Shown piece after piece: positions 10,972 to 50,806 of a DNA stretch of 64,000 bases (position 1 is the first letter of the stretch; every line of letters begins with the position of its first letter). The stretch covers positions 96,001-160,000 of the IMG/VR virus record IMGVR_UViG_3300033463_000005; one strand, 5' to 3'. This DNA is from a virus. Its lineage: Duplodnaviria; Caudoviricetes. The translations under genes were made by a program, and so were the position numbers. The notes under the pieces were generated by a model that was not told the DNA's origin, did not search any database, and saw nothing but the letters and a program-made list of their open reading frames with translations.

Positions 10972-11024
10972 AAGAAAACAACTCCTTTATTTTTTGGATT
11001 TTAATGTGAGAGACCTTGTCTCTT

Positions 11025-11612
11025 TCATTCGGAATCTTTTTGAAACTTCTTCAATACCGAATCGATTTCATCTTGCAACAAGGTGTACAAAGTTGTGAGT
11101 TTCTGATAGTATAGCAGATTCTCACCATAGCTCAGATTCACAAACTTGTTCAAGACATAGTCTTGTGCATTTGTGAGAGCACGTCTCAACCGATTGATTG
11201 AATTGTCGTTTAATGCGACAACGTCATACGGAAGTAATGGAATGATAGCTTGAAGGTTTTCCAGAGTCTCTTCAATTTCAGAGTTCTTATCCAACATCTG
11301 TTGATACAACTGCTGATTCAGAACATCGTTTGCTTTTTGAGACAATGTATCAGGTTTCTCTTGACTGTCGTCATTCGATTCACCCTGATCACCACCAATG
11401 TCACCCTCATCACCTCCGGTTCCATCGAAGCTTAAATCCTCCATATCGGTTGGCTCTGGAGGAAGATCGGCTCCCATGTCAGCCGGTGGTTGTTCGCCTG
11501 TTTGACCTTGTTGCTGATCATCTATATTGGGTTCAGGTTCTTCAGTCGGAGCGAAAGGCTCCATCAAATCACCTTCAGCTTCCATTATAGCGTAGAACAA
11601 GTTCTTTTGCAT
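11025..11612 (-). CDS. Acidic, likely scaffold/head protein
   Basis: IME/AE site, acidic disordered N-half, helical C-half, directly upstream of the capsid gene. Confidence 0.5.
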   Translation of the reverse strand: MQKNLFYAIMEAEGDLMEPFAPTEEPEPNIDDQQQGQTGEQPPADMGADLPPEPTDMEDLSFDGTGGDEGDIGGDQGESNDDSQEKPDTLSQKANDVLNQQLYQQMLDKNSEIEETLENLQAIIPLLPYDVVALNDNSINRLRRALTNAQDYVLNKFVNLSYGENLLYYQKLTTLYTLLQDEIDSVLKKFQKDSE

Positions 11613-11636
11613 TCGAAACAATCACCTTCTTTCGTG

Positions 11637-14600
11637 TTAGTAAACCGATTTAGACGTAGCAAATTTCCGTTTTTGAGCATCAGCAGACATTGATACCAAC
11701 TTTGCACGCATGCGCATCAGTTGATACAATTCTTTCTGTTGTTCCGGAGATTGCTTTTCACCATAATAATTATGGGATTTCAGATTTTCAATCTTCTGAT
11801 CAATGATTTGAATCTCGGTTGCAATTTCATCATTCGCTTCTTTGCGCAACCGTTCACGGTCTGCTAATTTCAGACCCTGTACGCCAAGATATGTTGCACC
11901 AAGAAACGGAGAAACGGCAGTAAACAGAGCAAATTTTCCAGTCTTCAATGCAAGTCTCGCAACCTTAAAGAGTGCGGATCTGTATGAAGGATTTTCAACC
12001 AACTCTGCTTTGACACGATCTTCATCTCGTTTGACAAAAGAATCGACCATCTTACGAAGCCATAATTTGGTTCTTCCAATCGGTTTGACAATTGCTCTTG
12101 CGGTATTTCCAACTTTTTGTACACCGCGTTTTGCTTTCTGGTGTAGAGAAAGCATGGCCATGTCAGCATCCTGTAATGTTGTTGACAAAGGTACTGACGG
12201 AGGAGTACCAGCATCCGATTCGACAAATAGGGGCTCTTTAGAATCCAAAAGTGCGAACACTTCCTGAACACTCTTTCCATTGGAAAAAGTATCAGGTGAT
12301 TCCTTAGAATTTGAAGAAGGCCTGGTATTATCATAATTGTTTGATGCTTTATTACGTCCAGCATGATTTGTCCGTTTATTGGACGACAAATCGTTTGTCG
12401 TAACTGTTGTCGTAGTGGTTTTACCAGAGGACAAATCATTTGTGGTGGTTGTGTTGTGGGAGTTTGTATTGTAAGTGATATTGTAAATCACCTGACCCGC
12501 ACCACCATGTGAAGGATTCTTGATGTCACCTTTGTAACCAGAGCCGAGCATATCACCAATCGATTCCGCATCTGGTGTATTCAAACGTGCTTGAATGGAA
12601 TCTGCCAAATCATCGAAATCATTTGTCGGAACATCCGGTGGAAGTTGAACATCAAGCGGAGAAGATGGATCACTGGTAGAATCATTCGATTGATCCGATG
12701 GTTTGTCATCAGACAGATTGATGCGTTCCTTCATATAGGTTGGAATGTCACCAAGTTCTTGCTCTTGAATAGATTCATCTTCTTCAACTTCTTCTGTTTC
12801 AGTGTCTTCTTCAACCGGCTCTTCTTCATCTTCATCTTCATCAGAATCAACCGGATGACCAAACACGGGCTTTCCCTCCCAATCATCCAGATGATCCAAA
12901 AGCATCTCGATATTATTCCAGAAAGGTTTGATATCGGATTTCAGAACATTTTCGATTTCGAATGGATTATCCGAGAACATGATAGAACCGTCATTGACAT
13001 TCAAATACAAACATTTGATTTGCTCTTCAATGTCATCCGGCATATCCATATCAGGATCATCAAACGGATACCATTCTGCAAACATCAGTAATCCGTTCTG
13101 AACCATGACTTTACCGATCTCGGTGTTCTGCAATGCAGCCAACATATCGGCGAATGAGAAAACATTACCAAGCATTCCACCGTTATCACATTTGATCAGT
13201 TTTCCATGCTTCGGTGGATGGTTGATGAACTCGATGAATTCTTTCGGGAGATGTTCGCCAAGTTTCTTTTCGATCTGATTGATCTTCTTCCGTTTAGACT
13301 TCTCTTTCAGCTTTGCAATGAAACCTTCTTGAATCGGCTCATCAAACAATTGATACGATTCACCAATGTATTGATCAATCTTAATTGGGGATGAGCCCTT
13401 GTTATATAGAGCATCACCAATGGAAGCAATGTCCTGGTATACAGCTTCCATGAACGCATCACAATACTTCATGTCGGACAATGACATGTCACCCAACAGT
13501 TTCATCGTATCCAAAGCGTATTCTGTCACCTGATCAGAGGTCTCAACAACATCGGTTGTTTTGGTTTGCTTCTGATACGGGTTGGCAGAACGGGAGTTCT
13601 GATTGATTCTGGCACGAATCTTTTTCACAAATCCATCCTCTGTCGGATAATCTTTTTCCTTCACATCGTCCGGAAGGAGATTATAAAGGATATCAAAATA
13701 GATACGAGAATCGAAAATGTTGAACAATGTCAAAATCGTGTTGTTTGAAATCGTAGCATTCTCTTGATTCGCCAGATTCAATTTCATGAAATCTTCGATG
13801 AAGCGAATGGTTCCCTCTTTATCAATTTTGAATGTTGTGAAAATATCGTAACGTCCGAATCTCTTGGCTCCGTTATTCTTTCGAATAATGGAAGAGTATG
13901 ATTTTGCATAATCCTTGAATGCAGGATGTTGCGTAACTTTGATGTCCCATTTGTTCTTCTTCATTGTGAAGATGTTTGCATAAATGAACGGCATCACATT
14001 ATCCGCAAACATTGTCACATCCGATTCCGGAATAGAAGAAAAATATGATGCAAGATCATCCGTATTATCACATTCACGAAGCTTCTTCAATAATGCATTC
14101 ACCCGGGATTCCAGTTGTCTAGAAATCTTCCATTTCTTTGACTTGGAATCATAAGTAACGTGCTCCGGTTTCTTCTCCGTGAAATAATTCACTGCAGCAG
14201 CTTCCTGAACAGTTTCATCAATGACGATTTCACAATCCTGGAGATCGGTGAAAGATTCGAAACGCTGTTTCTCGGTATCTTCCATCATGTCCTCGGGAAG
14301 TTTGATTTGATCATTTTCGAAGATGGATTGTACATAATCCGCACCATCGAACAGTTTATATTCGCCGGGGAATTTTGCAATGGAATCCAACTCCGGAACA
14401 GGGATCGGTGCGGTGAACAGTTGGATTGCTTCACGATACTTCGATGGAGTTGTGAACAACTCAAATGAATAGATACCGTTCAACAAGTCTTCAAACTGAT
14501 TGAAATTGTTTGCGATATATTGCAGCACTTTGAAGCCGACAAATGCGTGTAGATGATCCTGTGCAACCTGATTGGATCCATTCAGAATTGCAAACCATGG

Positions 14601-17710: not shown

Positions 17711-18616
17711 TTAAACTTCAGCTCTATTATCATCCGCTTCACCATGCTTGAAAACACTCATGTATTTCTCGGTGATTTTTGAAATAATCTGTGTTATTTG
17801 TGATAGATTCACAGATACAATCATTGCGTCGTTATTGATGCTGTCAGTTTTTTGTTTCAAATATTCATCAATGTCAACATCTTGTTCCATCGGTGCTTTT
17901 TTCAAAAACTCACCAGCATCTTTTTGCATCTCATTGGCTTGATACGTGACATTTTCCGCGATCTTCATACAGCTTTTAAGGTTTTCTTTACCTCGCTGAA
18001 TCACTCGAGCAAGTCTATGTTTTTCATTACCTGGATATGTTCTCGCAGTGAATATTGCATTGAAGCCCTCTTTATTTTCCCTATATTTATCAAGAGCGTT
18101 TTTTAGATCTCCAGTTTTTTCACTCATAGTAGAAAAATATGTCAAGAATTGAGCTGGTGTCGGTTGCTCATCTAATTCCATATAACGTAGGTTAATATAC
18201 AGAGTCCCTATAAAGTTATCAAATTCGTCATAATCAATCGGCAGTGATTCTCGAAAGAGCTCCGAATCCAATATATCGGGATCGTAAATTCCAGCCGTCA
18301 AATTGAGCATTGTACTGATTAATTTTACAATGATTCTCATGAATTTCATAATTAATCTCGGAATAAACATGAGAATCTTTTTAATTTTAGATTCGCCATA
18401 TTGACCTTTCAAAGGAGCATTTAAATCGTTAAAAATTTTTCCTTCTTGGAAGATGTCAAATGATGAAAGATCGGACGATTCATCAGCTTCTTGCAAAATA
18501 ACAACTGATTTTGAATAAGCGTTTAATAAGTCATTAATGACAGATAATTCAGACAATGTTGTTTGTTCCTGAATCTTGTCGACGTATTGCAATAACGATT
18601 CTTGCATGCATATCAC
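17711..18616 (-). CDS. Internal head protein family member
   Basis: LLQYVDKIQEQTTLSELSVI..YSK..IFQE/G, then GESKIKKILMFIPRL. Confidence 0.7.
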   Translation of the reverse strand: MICMQESLLQYVDKIQEQTTLSELSVINDLLNAYSKSVVILQEADESSDLSSFDIFQEGKIFNDLNAPLKGQYGESKIKKILMFIPRLIMKFMRIIVKLISTMLNLTAGIYDPDILDSELFRESLPIDYDEFDNFIGTLYINLRYMELDEQPTPAQFLTYFSTMSEKTGDLKNALDKYRENKEGFNAIFTARTYPGNEKHRLARVIQRGKENLKSCMKIAENVTYQANEMQKDAGEFLKKAPMEQDVDIDEYLKQKTDSINNDAMIVSVNLSQITQIISKITEKYMSVFKHGEADDNRAEV

Positions 18617-19467
18617 CTGCCATTCAGAAGAATATCAAGTGCCTCACGACGAATCTCACCACGAAGCGGAATGTGCATTCTGGAACCATCACACTGTTCA
18701 ACAATGATAGATTCATTTTGAATTCCCATCAATTCTTCTGGTGAAATCTGGAATGATTCGCAAACAACACGAAGATCTTCTGACTTCTCGGCACAATACT
18801 TTGCCAGTTCTTTCAGAAATACAACGGTACCTTCCTGATGAACTGTCGGCTGAATATCACCATCTGCATTTTCATGAGACGGGAAATCGACCATATCATA
18901 TGTGATAACTTTTGAAACACGCATATTCGGTTGGCCCATCGGAGCGGTCGGAATCATAGTTCCCAAGAGACGAACCGAGAATGATGGGACAGAGCCCATA
19001 TCGATGATTTCAACAGCTGCACCACGGCCAGTTTCGAATGCTGGGTCAGTTGTGATAATCGCACGATACCGGTCACCCTCCAAACGATTCTTTCGAATCA
19101 TATGAGAAGTGCGTGTTTGCTCCGGAATGTACATACGAATTTCGGACAAACGTTCACCGGCAATATCCGCATTCGGGTGGTTCAATTCACCACGCCATTT
19201 GTTCTGACAAATCAATGTTTGAATTCTTTCATCACCATCAATGACAGAAACAAGATTCATCGGATCATAACGACGTTTCATGCGGTTATAACAATTGAAT
19301 GTTTGAAGTGTTGCATCAAACTCAACATATGGTGCACCATTCGACGCACGGAACATTTTGTATCCACGTGGATCTACTTTGAATGATGGGATCTCTGCGT
19401 CTTGTGGTGCTTCTTGAACAAAACAAGCAGTTTCATACTTGTTTGTCTGTGTGCTTTTTAACGGCAT
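18613..19467 (-). CDS. Prohead (capsid maturation) protease, T4 gp21/phiKZ gp175-like
   Basis: GELNHP, SH, PSFSVR and VITYDMVDFPSH motifs; own FVQE/A and VHQE/G sites; start moved to the ATG after AAAGGAG. Confidence 0.85.
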   Translation of the reverse strand: MPLKSTQTNKYETACFVQEAPQDAEIPSFKVDPRGYKMFRASNGAPYVEFDATLQTFNCYNRMKRRYDPMNLVSVIDGDERIQTLICQNKWRGELNHPNADIAGERLSEIRMYIPEQTRTSHMIRKNRLEGDRYRAIITTDPAFETGRGAAVEIIDMGSVPSFSVRLLGTMIPTAPMGQPNMRVSKVITYDMVDFPSHENADGDIQPTVHQEGTVVFLKELAKYCAEKSEDLRVVCESFQISPEELMGIQNESIIVEQCDGSRMHIPLRGEIRREALDILLNGR

Positions 19468-46274: not shown

Positions 46275-48197
46275 TCAAGCTTTAATGACTTTTTCCAATG
46301 GTGTTTGTGTTGGTGGAATGCCACGGATTGTGTGTGATAAACCAACTGTAATTGCAGTTGAAATATCTTGGAATAGCAATCCTTGTAGAATGCCAGCACG
46401 TTGTACAGCAACACGGAATGGTTCTTTGTCATATGACATCGGATCAACATCTGATTTACCATACACGGATGCAAATGATTTATTCCCGTGTCGGCAAACA
46501 CGTCGTGCTAACATTTCATATGTGATGGAAGGACCATTCAGATCAATACCATTCAATTCCAAACAACGGAACATCAACTCTGTCATTAGATTATATGGTA
46601 ATTGTGGAGATTTACTATGTAAATATATTTGATTGATATAAAATTCAATATTTGCAACGGATTGTTGCATTGCAACTGAACACACTTGATCTCCTGCGTC
46701 ATATTGAATGATGTAATAATCTGGATCTTCCTGAATATCATCATAGATGTTGAATCGCAATGTTGCCGGAATTGTCATCAGAGTTGACAATAACACAGAA
46801 CCGTCTTCTTTGTAAAATTTTACAGGTAATACACCAAAGCTTTCACATACGGTTGCTTCAATGGAGAATCCAGAAAATTCTTCAAACAATTTTGGCACAA
46901 ATACTTTCATGATGGTTTTTGGAACAATGCATCCTTCATGAATATCATAATATGAATTTGCATCATTGAATATATACTTCTTATCGATGATGGATGCTTT
47001 TTGCGACAAGTCATGTTTTGATTTCAGTTTCTTATTCAACAATGCTTGTGTGATCGATGTGACAAGTAAACCGACATTTTGAACACCCAGATTATGGAAC
47101 ACTCTACCACCGCATTTACCACAGATTGATTCGTGGATGCAACACTGTGGAGAATACAATTCAACCGTTTTACCGACATAAGAACCAATGTTTTCCAAAG
47201 TGGTCAATACTTTCTGACCACCATCATTGATATACCGATATAATACATACTGTTTGTTTTTATCTGTGATTGTGAGTGGAATTGTTTTTGTTGTACCACA
47301 ATCGGAATTCGGATCCGCATCAATATGTTCTGACTGTAATAATGCGAGAATAATTTTTGCCATGTAACCAGAATCCGCAGTACCAACTGCAGAAGGATAT
47401 GCACCTGCAACAATAGAATTTGCAAATGCCGGAATATCCTTTTTCTTCACACCATCCATCAGTGAGGAATCGACGATATCAAATCTACCGGTAATGTTAT
47501 TAAACACAGCGCCACGCATAACATTGATCGTTTTATAGTTATTATCTAGATTACCATCGCCGGATGCATACATGTCATAGCCAGTATCACCTTTCAGATT
47601 CTGACGAACCATTTCCATCAATTCTTTTTCAATTTTATTCATTGCGAGAATTTGCTTGGTTGGATCTTTGGAATAAATATCATCGTGGTATTTTTCCATC
47701 AATTCCATTTTCCGTTGATTCACATTATGCATCGGACGAATCAATCCGGCGGAAATTGAAGTAGACAGAAATGCAGTTGCTTGGAATCCCAGTTGGTCAC
47801 GGCGGTCAACGAATTTTGCATTTGTATATGTATCAATTTGATCCGTAATAATCAAATTGTTGACAGCAACATTTAATGCACCAAGACCTTTTTTGTCTAG
47901 TGTTCGATTCCAATACCCAATAAATTGAATGACGCCAGTATATTCCAACAGGAATCGATTCATGAATAATAATCCAAGTGTTGTTTCGACAGAATCTTTC
48001 ACATATTGATATTCAGCATGAGACAGTGTGATTTTATCTGTTGGATTGAATGGTGCCTGTTTTGCTTGGTTGGTTTCTTTATCATAATATGCTGCAAACA
48101 AAGATTCCAGGAAATCCTTGTTAAATTCAGAAATATCTGCAGATAGAATTCGTTGCTTTCCAATGGTTGCATTGGATACTTGTTTCTCTATTGCCAT
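46275..48197 (-). CDS. Phage multisubunit RNA polymerase, beta-prime C-terminal part (probably virion RNAP)
   Basis: TTLG, MRG, SSLMDG, bridge-helix TADSGY, DCGT, Zn site SPQCC..ICGKC; no DFDGD, so the subunit is split. Confidence 0.85.
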   Translation of the reverse strand: MAIEKQVSNATIGKQRILSADISEFNKDFLESLFAAYYDKETNQAKQAPFNPTDKITLSHAEYQYVKDSVETTLGLLFMNRFLLEYTGVIQFIGYWNRTLDKKGLGALNVAVNNLIITDQIDTYTNAKFVDRRDQLGFQATAFLSTSISAGLIRPMHNVNQRKMELMEKYHDDIYSKDPTKQILAMNKIEKELMEMVRQNLKGDTGYDMYASGDGNLDNNYKTINVMRGAVFNNITGRFDIVDSSLMDGVKKKDIPAFANSIVAGAYPSAVGTADSGYMAKIILALLQSEHIDADPNSDCGTTKTIPLTITDKNKQYVLYRYINDGGQKVLTTLENIGSYVGKTVELYSPQCCIHESICGKCGGRVFHNLGVQNVGLLVTSITQALLNKKLKSKHDLSQKASIIDKKYIFNDANSYYDIHEGCIVPKTIMKVFVPKLFEEFSGFSIEATVCESFGVLPVKFYKEDGSVLLSTLMTIPATLRFNIYDDIQEDPDYYIIQYDAGDQVCSVAMQQSVANIEFYINQIYLHSKSPQLPYNLMTELMFRCLELNGIDLNGPSITYEMLARRVCRHGNKSFASVYGKSDVDPMSYDKEPFRVAVQRAGILQGLLFQDISTAITVGLSHTIRGIPPTQTPLEKVIKA

Positions 48198-48239: not shown

Positions 48240-48265
48240 ATTATACTTTATAATTTTTTATTATA

Positions 48266-48306
48266 TATATATTATTTATATGGATAGAATATGATGGTTC
48301 TATCCA
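48266..48306 (+). promoter_or_regulatory. Early-type promoter motif plus hairpin
   Basis: TATATATTATT-TATA-TGGATAGAA..TTCTATCCA. Confidence 0.6.
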
Positions 48307-48327: not shown

Positions 48328-49317
48328 TTGATTATGATGATGGATCTGGCAAAGTTTAACCGAATACTGATGAATCACCGAACGGGAGTATCAAAGGATA
48401 TTCCAATGAGAACTGTTCTCGGTATGCTAAAAGATACGCTGTATGTGTCAGATGATACATACCACAAAGATCTACCATACGACGAGAAGGTGAAGTTCTA
48501 TAACAAGAACATGAGCAATATTTTCAATGAAAGCGGAGACCGGCTTCCAATACCCACAGATTCTATGCGACTTGCATTGATACAACGAAATGAACGATTC
48601 TATGATGTCGTGAAATACATGCTTGTCAATTTCAATGTGGACGCAATTACGTACTACATGATTGCAAGTGGCGAATTAACAGATTCCGTTACACGGGCCA
48701 TCGAACGAAGTAGACTATGGCTGCCTCATGAAAAACGTTCTGCATATTTCGTCACAGAATATTATTACTATATGATCAAACGCGCGTTGGTACTGTCCGT
48801 ATTCGGAAAAAGATTCGAATGCGAAGTGGATTCGTTTATCAAAGACTTTGAATTCACAATGGACAACTATGTGTCGTTAATAAACTATGACGACAGGATT
48901 GAGGTGTATGGTCGAAAAGAGTATGCATACAGAGATGAACAAACCATCTGTGTTGATTATCCAAAGCAGCTTTTAATCCCAATCAATCTATTATCCGTGA
49001 ATGCGGATATCATTCATGCGGATGATATATTCGTAATCGCCGCATTTGGAGATGTGATTGTTTTGTGGAAAAACGGTGATGAATATATGGATGAGAATAA
49101 ACTCGTTTCCCCATATCGCGAATTGCTGCTTCCGGATAATGTCGACCCATACGTTCCGTTTAAGTTTGATTATGACAACGGAAAAATCATTGTCACAACG
49201 CAAAAGCATATCGTCGAGATTATTATTCACAATCTCGACTGGTCAATCGATGGTCGTGCATCCAAGACCACACGGCGTAAGGATTTCAATGTTATTAAAA
49301 GACCAGAAACTGAATGA
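48328..49317 (+). CDS. Hypothetical early protein
   Basis: 329-aa ORF between promoter motif and terminator; no motif recognised. Confidence 0.75.
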   Translation: MIMMMDLAKFNRILMNHRTGVSKDIPMRTVLGMLKDTLYVSDDTYHKDLPYDEKVKFYNKNMSNIFNESGDRLPIPTDSMRLALIQRNERFYDVVKYMLVNFNVDAITYYMIASGELTDSVTRAIERSRLWLPHEKRSAYFVTEYYYYMIKRALVLSVFGKRFECEVDSFIKDFEFTMDNYVSLINYDDRIEVYGRKEYAYRDEQTICVDYPKQLLIPINLLSVNADIIHADDIFVIAAFGDVIVLWKNGDEYMDENKLVSPYRELLLPDNVDPYVPFKFDYDNGKIIVTTQKHIVEIIIHNLDWSIDGRASKTTRRKDFNVIKRPETE

Positions 49318-49321
49318 TTGA

Positions 49322-49360
49322 AATGGGGTGCCAATGGCACCCCATTCTATTTTTTATTTT
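49322..49360 (+). terminator. Intrinsic terminator
   Basis: AATGGGGTGCCA/TGGCACCCCATT followed by T-runs. Confidence 0.8.
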
Positions 49361-49366
49361 TTCATA

Positions 49367-49411
49367 TATATATTATTAATATGAATAGAGAGGAATGGCA
49401 GCCCTCTATTC
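49367..49411 (+). promoter_or_regulatory. Early-type promoter motif plus hairpin
   Basis: TATATATTATT-AATAT-GAATAGAG..CTCTATTC. Confidence 0.6.
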
Positions 49412-49949
49412 TACATCTAATTTCTCCTTAAGGGTCCCACCAACCCGGGATCGAAGAGATCCCTCTGGTCGCAGGCTTGCCAGGAAATACTTTGGTAAAA
49501 GCCTGAATAGTTGCCGGTCTATAAAACCGGAGTAATCGGTATCCTGCTAGAAATAATTCCAATAGCAGGACTCATAAGTCAGTCGCTCGTGGGATTGACA
49601 TGAGATAGGGCACACTACCTAAAACCGAACAAAGAAGCACCGCGCGCACGGCGGTGTGAGTGGTCACGAGAATCCGTTTCCATTGGTGGTGGAATTGCAA
49701 GTGCTCATTGTTGGGATGGTTTGAAACGGCCATGCCCGACCGGGTCGATTTACCCGTAAAACTGTAGGTTGAGATCTACAGTAAAGAGCCTGAGGAGCTG
49801 CTCAACCCCATATGGGGGACCTCACCATGTAAGTTGTGGTGAATGCAAATACAGGGAACGTGCACGCATGAAGTGCATTGTGAACTGTGACAACTTGGAA
49901 AGAATGTATGGGAATGGTGGTGTGGCCAATTCTCATACATTCTTTTTTT
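49383..49949 (+). ncRNA. Large structured non-coding RNA candidate (~560 nt), class unknown
   Basis: No credible ORF; GC higher than flanks; 14 or more hairpins with G-U pairs favouring +; flanked by promoter motif and terminator. Confidence 0.75.
49899..49949 (+). terminator. Terminator of the ncRNA
   Basis: AAAGAATGTATGGGAAT/ATTCTCATACATTCTTT with T-run. Confidence 0.75.
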
Positions 49950-49969
49950 AATTTATTTAAAATATATAA

Positions 49970-49995
49970 AAAGGAGCGCCATCAGGCGCTCCTTT
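49970..49995 (-). terminator. Terminator for the - operon
   Basis: AAAGGAGCGCC-ATCA-GGCGCTCCTTT. Confidence 0.75.
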
Positions 49996-50007
49996 ACAAT
50001 TTATTTT

Positions 50008-50262
50008 TTATTCACGAACCTTTTCGCGTCGAATAATCAACACATCTTTGTGTCCGGATTTCGCAATACCATTCATCCACTCGATATTTTGTTCATGCCT
50101 AATATTATTATTCTCGATACTGGAATAATGTTTCATTAACCATTGATCTAGTGAGGCTTGGGAATCAAATATTTTGATTCGAAGATTTGGATTCTCCAAT
50201 GATGAAGAGTCACGTCCATCACGATTTACAACAAGAATATGAACCGAACGTTCAAAAGCCAT
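50008..50262 (-). CDS. Hypothetical protein
   Basis: Start MAFERSV after GGAG. Confidence 0.6.
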   Translation of the reverse strand: MAFERSVHILVVNRDGRDSSSLENPNLRIKIFDSQASLDQWLMKHYSSIENNNIRHEQNIEWMNGIAKSGHKDVLIIRREKVRE

Positions 50263-50263
50263 A

Positions 50264-50713
50264 TCATTTTCTCCATTTCTGAAATATAAAATGATACATT
50301 GAATGCGATTCATCAAATAGCATAGATCGGATGACGTCATCCAATAAGATTGCAATCGCACTCAATGGAATCCAATATAGCAAAGTATGATGTAAACACA
50401 CTTGTCCATATAGATTTAAAAATCGGTTAGAATAATCCCAAATATTCAAACCTAACTGAATATTTAGTATATATCCGGATATAAATTCTAATGCAGTTAT
50501 GACACATCCACCAATGAGTGTTTGTACTTCAAATAGCATATCTTCTGTATACCATTCATTGATTAATCCAATTATGATGAAACATAATCCACCAACAATA
50601 CCCATGGTCCAATGTGTAAATCCACGAACGGTTGTTTCGATATACATGTATATCAAACCACCAATGATTCCGAGAATGAATTCACGAATTAAGAATCGGA
50701 TTATCTTCACCAT
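50264..50713 (-). CDS. Membrane protein, putative ABC-transporter type IV (CmpB-like) family
   Basis: GGLIY..IE..RG.THWTM..GG; TALEF..G..LN..WDYS..NL.GQVC. Confidence 0.75.
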   Translation of the reverse strand: MVKIIRFLIREFILGIIGGLIYMYIETTVRGFTHWTMGIVGGLCFIIIGLINEWYTEDMLFEVQTLIGGCVITALEFISGYILNIQLGLNIWDYSNRFLNLYGQVCLHHTLLYWIPLSAIAILLDDVIRSMLFDESHSMYHFIFQKWRK

Positions 50714-50806
50714 TCGATGATTGGAAGTCTCCGTCATCATCACTTTGTTCATCTTCGTCTGGTAATGTTTCCGGTTCAATTGGGTCATCTCCAGTCATTT
50801 ACATTG

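Follow-up and report, generated by a model that had tools for sequence, protein, structure and literature searches.

To our knowledge, natural RNAs that combine large size with a complex conserved fold are rare. Most of those that are understood have proved to be ribozymes or machines. The closest described system is ROOL (Rfam RF03087; average 581 nt; many helices, pseudoknots), which was first found in cow rumen, occurs in phages and prophages, frequently next to tRNA islands, is non-essential and has no known protein partner (PMC5737381; PMC12286853). ROOL and GOLLD form homo-oligomeric RNA-only cages, the purpose of which is unknown; GOLLD is a distinct family, the members of which are often longer than 800 nt (PMC12286853). 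In a jumbo-phage review of 2026 non-coding RNAs are touched on just briefly.

The RNA described below (567 nt; about 690 nt in a second lineage) is like ROOL in that it is large, pseudoknotted, phage-borne, non-essential and, in the copy of the related phage G002, placed beside a tRNA island; it differs in that no sequence or structure match to ROOL was obtained, and in that it is found in two lineages, here in an AR9-like jumbo phage and under a virion-RNAP promoter. With GOLLD it shares phage origin, nearness to tRNAs and the joining of a conserved part to a variable one; the greater length of many GOLLD members and the lack of any Rfam match here set the two apart. ROOL and GOLLD cages are held by kissing loops and A-minor contacts, of which the only hint here is a palindrome in the loop of one hairpin (P6), seen in three sequence types. 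In its genomic behaviour the unit is similar to early "moron"-type cassettes (promoter, gene and terminator; presence or absence; alternative cassettes at one slot), the difference being that here a large structured RNA is carried in place of a protein. The locus probably encodes a stand-alone structured non-coding RNA, presumably acting in trans, that belongs to an uncatalogued family and is borne by an AR9/PBS1-like jumbo phage.

Setting and architecture of the transcription unit

The window, i.e., the whole stretch of 64,000 nt analysed, comprises bases 96001–160000 of a 258.5-kb IMG/VR virus record (G000; 96% complete; genome-wide GC 0.39). A 640-aa gene adjoining the RNA (46275–48197, − strand) is about 33% identical to RNA polymerase pieces of AR9, PBS1 and Staphylococcus jumbo phages; in AR9 the corresponding gene, g264, carries the annotation virion RNAP subunit, and RNAP genes are split into pieces in some relatives. 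On the strength of this g264-like neighbour the record was assigned to an uncultured AR9-like jumbo phage. The contig name of one relative was taken by us to denote a ruminant gastrointestinal metagenome series. Upstream of the RNA lies the gene of a 329-aa early protein (48328–49317, +), and a convergent 84-aa gene (50008–50262, −; product on record in the 84-aa form) follows, which is abutted by the gene of a CmpB-like membrane protein (50264–50788); a 117-aa ORF (50008–50361, −) is an over-extended call of the 84-aa gene.

The RNA locus is the largest gap without ORFs of at least 90 aa in the genome, the tRNA island excepted; it is located at 145 kb of G000, and the phage's own tRNA island is far off, at 232–248 kb. 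In this island 12 tRNA calls were made by ARAGORN, two of them with odd anticodon loops (234843–235025), and ORF-free gaps of 0.6–1 kb (231804–232735, 233834–234473, 246837–247889) contain one tRNA each; there may be room in them for further RNA genes. A second copy of the RNA was not detected in these gaps with a covariance model built on both lineages (R2). Two GC islands (G000 17852–18933, 0.61; 10985–12013, 0.58) are crossed by long ORFs and may represent recently acquired genes; the former is situated directly downstream of an early promoter at 18931 (−).

Early promoters of AR9, read by the injected virion RNAP, have the experimentally defined consensus AAATATATATTAT-(6N)-G+1 (Lavysh et al., PMC5312081). 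The sequence ATATATATATTAT at 49364–49376 (+) fits this consensus in 12 of the 13 positions, which bears out the early-type promoter claimed in the first-pass annotation, and is followed by the 6-nt spacer TAATAT (promoter as a whole, 49364–49382) and by G49383; from the AR9 spacing the latter is the predicted +1, exactly the start that had been given there. The motif ATATATATTATTNATATGNATAGA was found at 48265 and 49366, i.e., twice in the window vs 0.01 expected, and the core TATATTATT about 20 times in the genome, mostly with a hairpin after it. From the promoter class we infer that the RNA would be made by the virion RNAP at the onset of infection; a homologue of a subunit of this enzyme (AR9 g264 type) is encoded beside it. 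Some 20 AR9-type early promoters have a hairpin at +1 to about +25, its pairing kept and its sequence varied (window: 48265–48306, 49366–49411; G000: 34995, 171572, 235088 and 236111 on +, 18931, 129909 and 190833 on −); the same arrangement is met in relatives (L002:5906–5950), and the hairpin could serve as a 5'-end protecting or promoter-clearance element. The 5' hairpin of the RNA itself (GAAUAGAGAGG...CCCUCUAUUC, 49383–49411, +; MFE fold) is retained, with changes, in three near copies (L028–L030).

The unit ends in an intrinsic terminator (49899–49949, +; MFE and alifold), a 21-bp bulged hairpin followed by U7, that is conserved in L028–L030 with one G.U → A-U change; it was missed by a simple terminator scan because the hairpin is bulged. 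A second, bidirectional terminator (49970–49995) belongs to the convergent 84-aa gene. A stand-alone RNA unit at 49383–49949 (+; about 520–567 nt), as originally proposed, was thus found with its own promoter, its own terminator and no credible ORF, and every stem listed for it was present on refolding. No gene lies downstream on the strand of the RNA in either of its two genomic contexts; hence it is not a cis leader.

The longest ORF in the stretch is of 60 aa (49769–49951, +), and one of 54 aa is present on the opposite strand (49776–49940, −). A protein-coding or dual-function locus, in which one such short ORF (46–60 aa) is expressed as protein and the base-pairing is a by-product, would account for the presence of ORFs on both strands and for the antisense ORFs called by gene callers in L030 and L028; it is scarcely credible in view of the following. 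No ORF is preserved: the indels among the near copies are of 1, 2 and 4 nt and shift the frames, the antisense product is altered by a frameshift between the window and L030, and the ORFs of the G002 copy differ, none being shared with the window copy. None of eight ORF translations from the stretch occurs in a collection of 15 billion proteins, fishing for homologues via the spurious ORF products gave no candidates, and the products are not on record save for a singleton 178-aa call; the substitutions track base-pairing, not codons.

Homologues in two lineages and the conserved fold

Five homologues were found, three near copies and two copies of a diverged lineage. The near copies occupy the same site (L030, 95%; L029, 93%; L028, 87% identity) and were reached via the contigs of the flanking 329-aa and 84-aa protein clusters (small 90% clusters); their contigs presumably come from a ruminant-type metagenome. 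For the diverged lineage, a covariance model of the 157-nt core (49536–49692) was built from the window type alone (R1), and five related phages were searched with it; one of the five was matched (G002:85912–86092, 40.5 bits, E = 4e-9). G002 is a related 278-kb phage, the RNA of which is GC-rich, about 690 nt long (fold z = −6.7) and equipped at its locus (L032) with the same promoter type, a +1 at L032:1314, a 5' hairpin and a terminator. It stands directly after five tRNA genes; its neighbours are the tRNAs and an unrelated 184-aa gene, and the 329-aa protein is absent. The second copy of this lineage, 97% identical, is contained in a 278.9-kb ENA contig.

Folding of the + strand gave an MFE of −220.3 kcal/mol vs −169.1 ± 6.7 for shuffled sequences (z = −7.7); for the − strand z = −4.5. 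The GC content of the RNA body is 0.47–0.49 vs 0.32–0.40 in the flanks, and the alifold consensus of the window type comprises 162 pairs. In the 5' domain several helices meet at a junction, which is locked by one pseudoknot at least and probably by two; the 3' multi-hairpin domain is more variable.

After the 5' hairpin, CCACCA (49437–49442, +) pairs over a long range with UGGUGG at 49684–49689 and supplies the 5' strand of the resulting helix, pseudoknot 2; in L028 both sides are changed (CCAUCA with UGAUGG), and this double change supports the pairing of 49437–49442 with the loop of the UUCCA/UGGAA hairpin. Domain I (49443–49535, +; MFE and alifold) consists of the hairpins P2 (GGGAUC/GAUCCC), P3 (CAGGCUU/AAGCCUG) and P4 (CCGGU/ACCGG), for which positional analogues of different sequence are present in G002 (GGACGAUCCC/GGGAUUGUCC, ACUAGGCU/AGCCUAGU and ACAGC/GCUGU). 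A possible H-type pseudoknot around P4 (AUAG/CUAU; in G002 CAGUU/AACUG) is broken in L028.

The junction (49536–49628, +) is closed by UCGGU/ACCGA and holds P5a (UCCUGCUA/UAGCAGGA), P5b (CUCAU-GUCAGUC/GAUUGAC-AUGAG) and P5c (GGG/CCU); it is unvaried across the four near copies, and its helices are kept in G002 via compensatory changes. The loop of P5b, CUCGUG (49586–49591, +), is the 5' strand of pseudoknot 1. Downstream of the junction there follow a single-stranded joiner CGAACAAAGAAG (49626–49637, +), identical in both lineages; the hairpin P6 (GCACCGC/GCGGUGU, 49637–49657, +), in which five of the seven pairs are changed on both sides in G002; and the conserved UGAGUGGUCA with CACGAG (49665–49670), the 3' strand of pseudoknot 1 (segment 49657–49670, +). 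The loop of P6 contains a short palindrome, GCGC in the window, and across the three sequence types GCGC, UCGA and GUCGAC; speculatively, this may be a kissing loop. The hairpin P7 (UUCCA/UGGAA, 49678–49694, +) carries in its loop UUGGUGG the 3' strand of pseudoknot 2, and its G002 analogue is ACAUCC/GGAUGU with the loop GUGGUG. A local hairpin at 49659–49687, suggested by single-sequence folding, was rejected: it is not kept in G002, and pseudoknot 1 takes its place. A reading of CCUUAAG/UAUGG as an 11-nt receptor was likewise dropped, the strand order being wrong by inspection.

Domain II (49698–49897, +; alifold) is made up of seven hairpins closed by CAAGU/ACUUG, with the stems P8 (GUUGGGAUGGUU/GGCCAU-CCCGAC), P9 (CGGGU/ACCCG) and P10 (ACUGUAG/CUACAGU), and further GAGC/GCUC, CCCC/GGGG, UCACCAUG/UGUGGUGA and ACAG-GUGCAC/GUGCAU-CUGU. 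The 3' third differs between the two lineages; P2, P3, P4, P7, P8, P9 and P10 have G002 analogues in the same order and of different sequence, and a model of P8–P10 (R3) aligned the G002 hairpins in order with a weak score of only 4.1 bits. A perfect 12-bp long-range complement was observed in G002 between L032:1510–1521 (CCUAUCCGCAAU) and L032:1873–1884 (AUUGCGGAUAGG); it competes with the conserved-core helix P5a, is unchanged in L085, and might reflect a second conformer or else a contact of tertiary or intermolecular kind.

The fold is conserved by compensatory changes across two lineages and is under selection. In the core alignment (five sequences, 41 pairs, 99% paired) 16 of 41 pairs are changed on both sides; this number was reached in 0/500 shuffles, and slid controls gave 0–2. 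With no more than two lineages (six sequences) found, most of the covariation stems from a single deep split. Fitting of the alignment to the nested helices favours these; pseudoknot 1 lies outside the model. Of sequence CUCGUG/CACGAG in the window and CCUCUG/CAGAGG in G002, this pseudoknot has six pairs, 100% paired, of which three adjacent ones are changed on both sides, so that the pairing originally proposed for it holds. A second long-range pairing proposed at the same time, GGTCCC (49433) with GGGACC (49816), found no support: in L028 and L029 its U-A pair is replaced by C.A, uncompensated. Among the near copies, three double compensatory changes were found in the 162 alifold pairs (P8, G-C → A-U; P10, a U-A > U.G > C-G series; the UCACCAUG stem, A-U → G-C), together with single-sided compatible changes in about sixteen pairs; 13 of 18 variable pairs stay canonical, and variable columns of the RNA body number 24/268 when paired vs 41/198 when unpaired. 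On the opposite strand the G.U intermediates would read as A.C mismatches, hence the + strand is the functional one; the preference of G-U pairs for this strand had been noticed at first reading, and the U-A > U.G > C-G series is sensible on + only. By the identities in L028 (RNA, 89%; 84-aa gene, 95.7%; CmpB-like gene, 91%), conservation of the RNA does not exceed that of the genes beside it.

These data also bear on the idea that the stretch acts as DNA (as an origin, or as a site of packaging or recombination) or is a structured spacer devoid of RNA function. The recombination-prone, hypervariable slot and the dispensability of the stretch (see below) would suit this idea. It is nevertheless very improbable: the unit is bounded exactly by promoter and terminator, RNA is indicated both by the difference in fold between the strands and by the G.U intermediates, and the homologue has other genomic surroundings and the same type of promoter.

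Comparison with catalogued RNA families

The whole window was searched by cmscan with all 4227 families of Rfam 15 at gathering thresholds, and no match was obtained, GOLLD, OLE, HEARO and raiA included; the further families named for this check in the first-pass annotation (ROOL, tmRNA, RNase P) were also without a match. At E ≤ 10 the segment 49250–50050 gave terminator-type chance matches at its edges only, and the G002 locus (L032) at E ≤ 1 gave no match in the RNA. No tRNA or tmRNA was found in the window by ARAGORN, and none of the Rfam models of RNase P and tmRNA matched in it; this agrees with the early remark that hallmarks of RNase P, tmRNA and introns are missing.

The suggestion of an RNA of ROOL/GOLLD scale, possibly of a new class, is in keeping with the size and with the negative Rfam 15 search. 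A highly diverged ROOL or GOLLD member, and not a new family, would share with this RNA the size class, the phage origin, the ruminant-type source, the pseudoknots and, for the G002 copy, the position beside a tRNA island; still, none of the 4227 families matched the body at E ≤ 10 (window) or E ≤ 1 (G002), and a direct search of G000 and G002 with RF03087 (gathering score 99.1 bits) was empty at E ≤ 10, the control genomes being equally silent. Membership in either family is accordingly regarded as improbable, and an uncatalogued family is preferred.

AR9-like phages are rich in group I introns, and the pseudoknotted multi-helix core might bring to mind a free-standing or degenerate ribozyme derived from a group I (or group II) intron. 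There is very little probability in this origin: the models Intron_gpI and group II gave no match even at E ≤ 10, RF01998 (group-II-D1D4-1) none in G000 or G002; the unit is intergenic, and having its own +1 and terminator and no exons, it is not an intron. By inspection, the helix order is unlike P3-P4-P5-P6-P7-P3'-P8-P7': three hairpins precede the junction, and the hairpin loop of the junction pairs beyond a further downstream hairpin. A structured RNA gene of a family of its own remains the preferred reading.

Cassette behaviour, distribution and possible role

Promoter, RNA and terminator form a presence/absence cassette (49357–49942), the borders of which lie in T-rich microhomology. Contigs 94–97% identical to the window differ at the RNA site: in L019 and L020 the cassette is absent, 49372 joins 49943, and the terminator of the 329-aa gene runs straight into 49943; in L018 and L027 the segment 49356–50003 is absent, a different border; in L021 and L022 (contig tails) there is instead another early-promoter cassette, with a small protein gene and its own terminator; in L028 the RNA is accompanied by the extra 178-aa ORF call mentioned above. 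The slot as a whole (49318–50007) is hypervariable among these near-identical phages (L018–L022, L027–L030). The two deletion borders imply that the RNA was lost at least twice, and as a losable, self-contained cassette in a hypervariable early slot it is accessory and dispensable; judged from the contigs compared, it is one among several alternative early cassettes in this slot.

A partnership of the RNA with the adjacent 329-aa protein had been suggested, with synteny to 48328–49317 as a check. The two occur apart: the protein is present without the RNA in the near-identical phages L018–L020 and L027, and the RNA without the protein in G002, so the suggestion found no support. For the 329-aa protein no Pfam or PHROG family was found, and the only relatives obtained were the members of its 90% cluster (six sequences).

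The model R2 was applied to 33 related jumbo-phage records, and the RNA was found in two of them (G000, G002), that is, in 2/8 of the records at least 90% complete. Matches in G010 and G028 (17–19 bits) were rejected, the junction being absent. The same model found none in AR9, S6, LPJP1 and BpSp; scans for exact and degenerate motifs in IMG/VR, in JGI metagenomes and among 185,579 prokaryote genomes brought up G002 and otherwise just chance matches that fail the model; BLAST of either lineage vs GenBank phages and whole relatives gave nothing. In six relatives with 61–73% RNAP identity the RNA is absent from the corresponding slot, which in L002 contains a 198-aa gene under the same promoter type. 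From the model and motif scans it follows that the RNA family is rare and patchy.

The following course of events may be envisaged. Straight after DNA entry the virion RNAP would transcribe the RNA from the AR9-type promoter, from G49383 to the terminator at 49899–49949; the product would fold into the pseudoknot-locked 5' junction domain and the variable 3' multi-hairpin domain; the promoter-RNA-terminator cassette would be carried, and could be lost, in the hypervariable early slot; and a particle of the folded RNA, alone or in company with proteins, might then take part in host takeover or counter-defence, much as has been proposed for ROOL and GOLLD. That the RNA plays an accessory part in host takeover or counter-defence is put forward tentatively, from the behaviour of the cassette and the nature of its slot, and is somewhat less probable than its opposite. 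Self-assembly of the RNA, as in the ROOL/GOLLD cages, would be by analogy of size, pseudoknots, a variable 3' part, a tRNA-island neighbourhood (one lineage) and P6-loop palindromes, and is considered unlikely. Equally doubtful is the furthest-reaching version, in which a new class of large ornate RNA would be fired early by the virion polymerase, would pass between phages as a mobile RNA-only cassette and, by self-assembly into a particle or as a ribozyme, would disable host defence or capture tRNAs or ribosomes.

The locus is a real structured RNA gene, and its family a new, small one. It provides an independent large-RNA case with clear genetics (defined promoter class, +1 and terminator), natural phages with no other difference than the cassette, a pseudoknot supported by covariation and a compact conserved core of 157 nt for structural work; owing to these clear genetics, the use that phages make of large ornate RNAs becomes testable by comparison of cassette-plus and cassette-minus phages. 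It also suggests that RNA genes, and not just protein genes, should be looked for in the early variable regions of such phages. Were the RNA indeed a mobile particle or ribozyme of this kind, it would do as RNA what protein anti-defence genes do, and ROOL/GOLLD-type biology would have gained a third, independent example.
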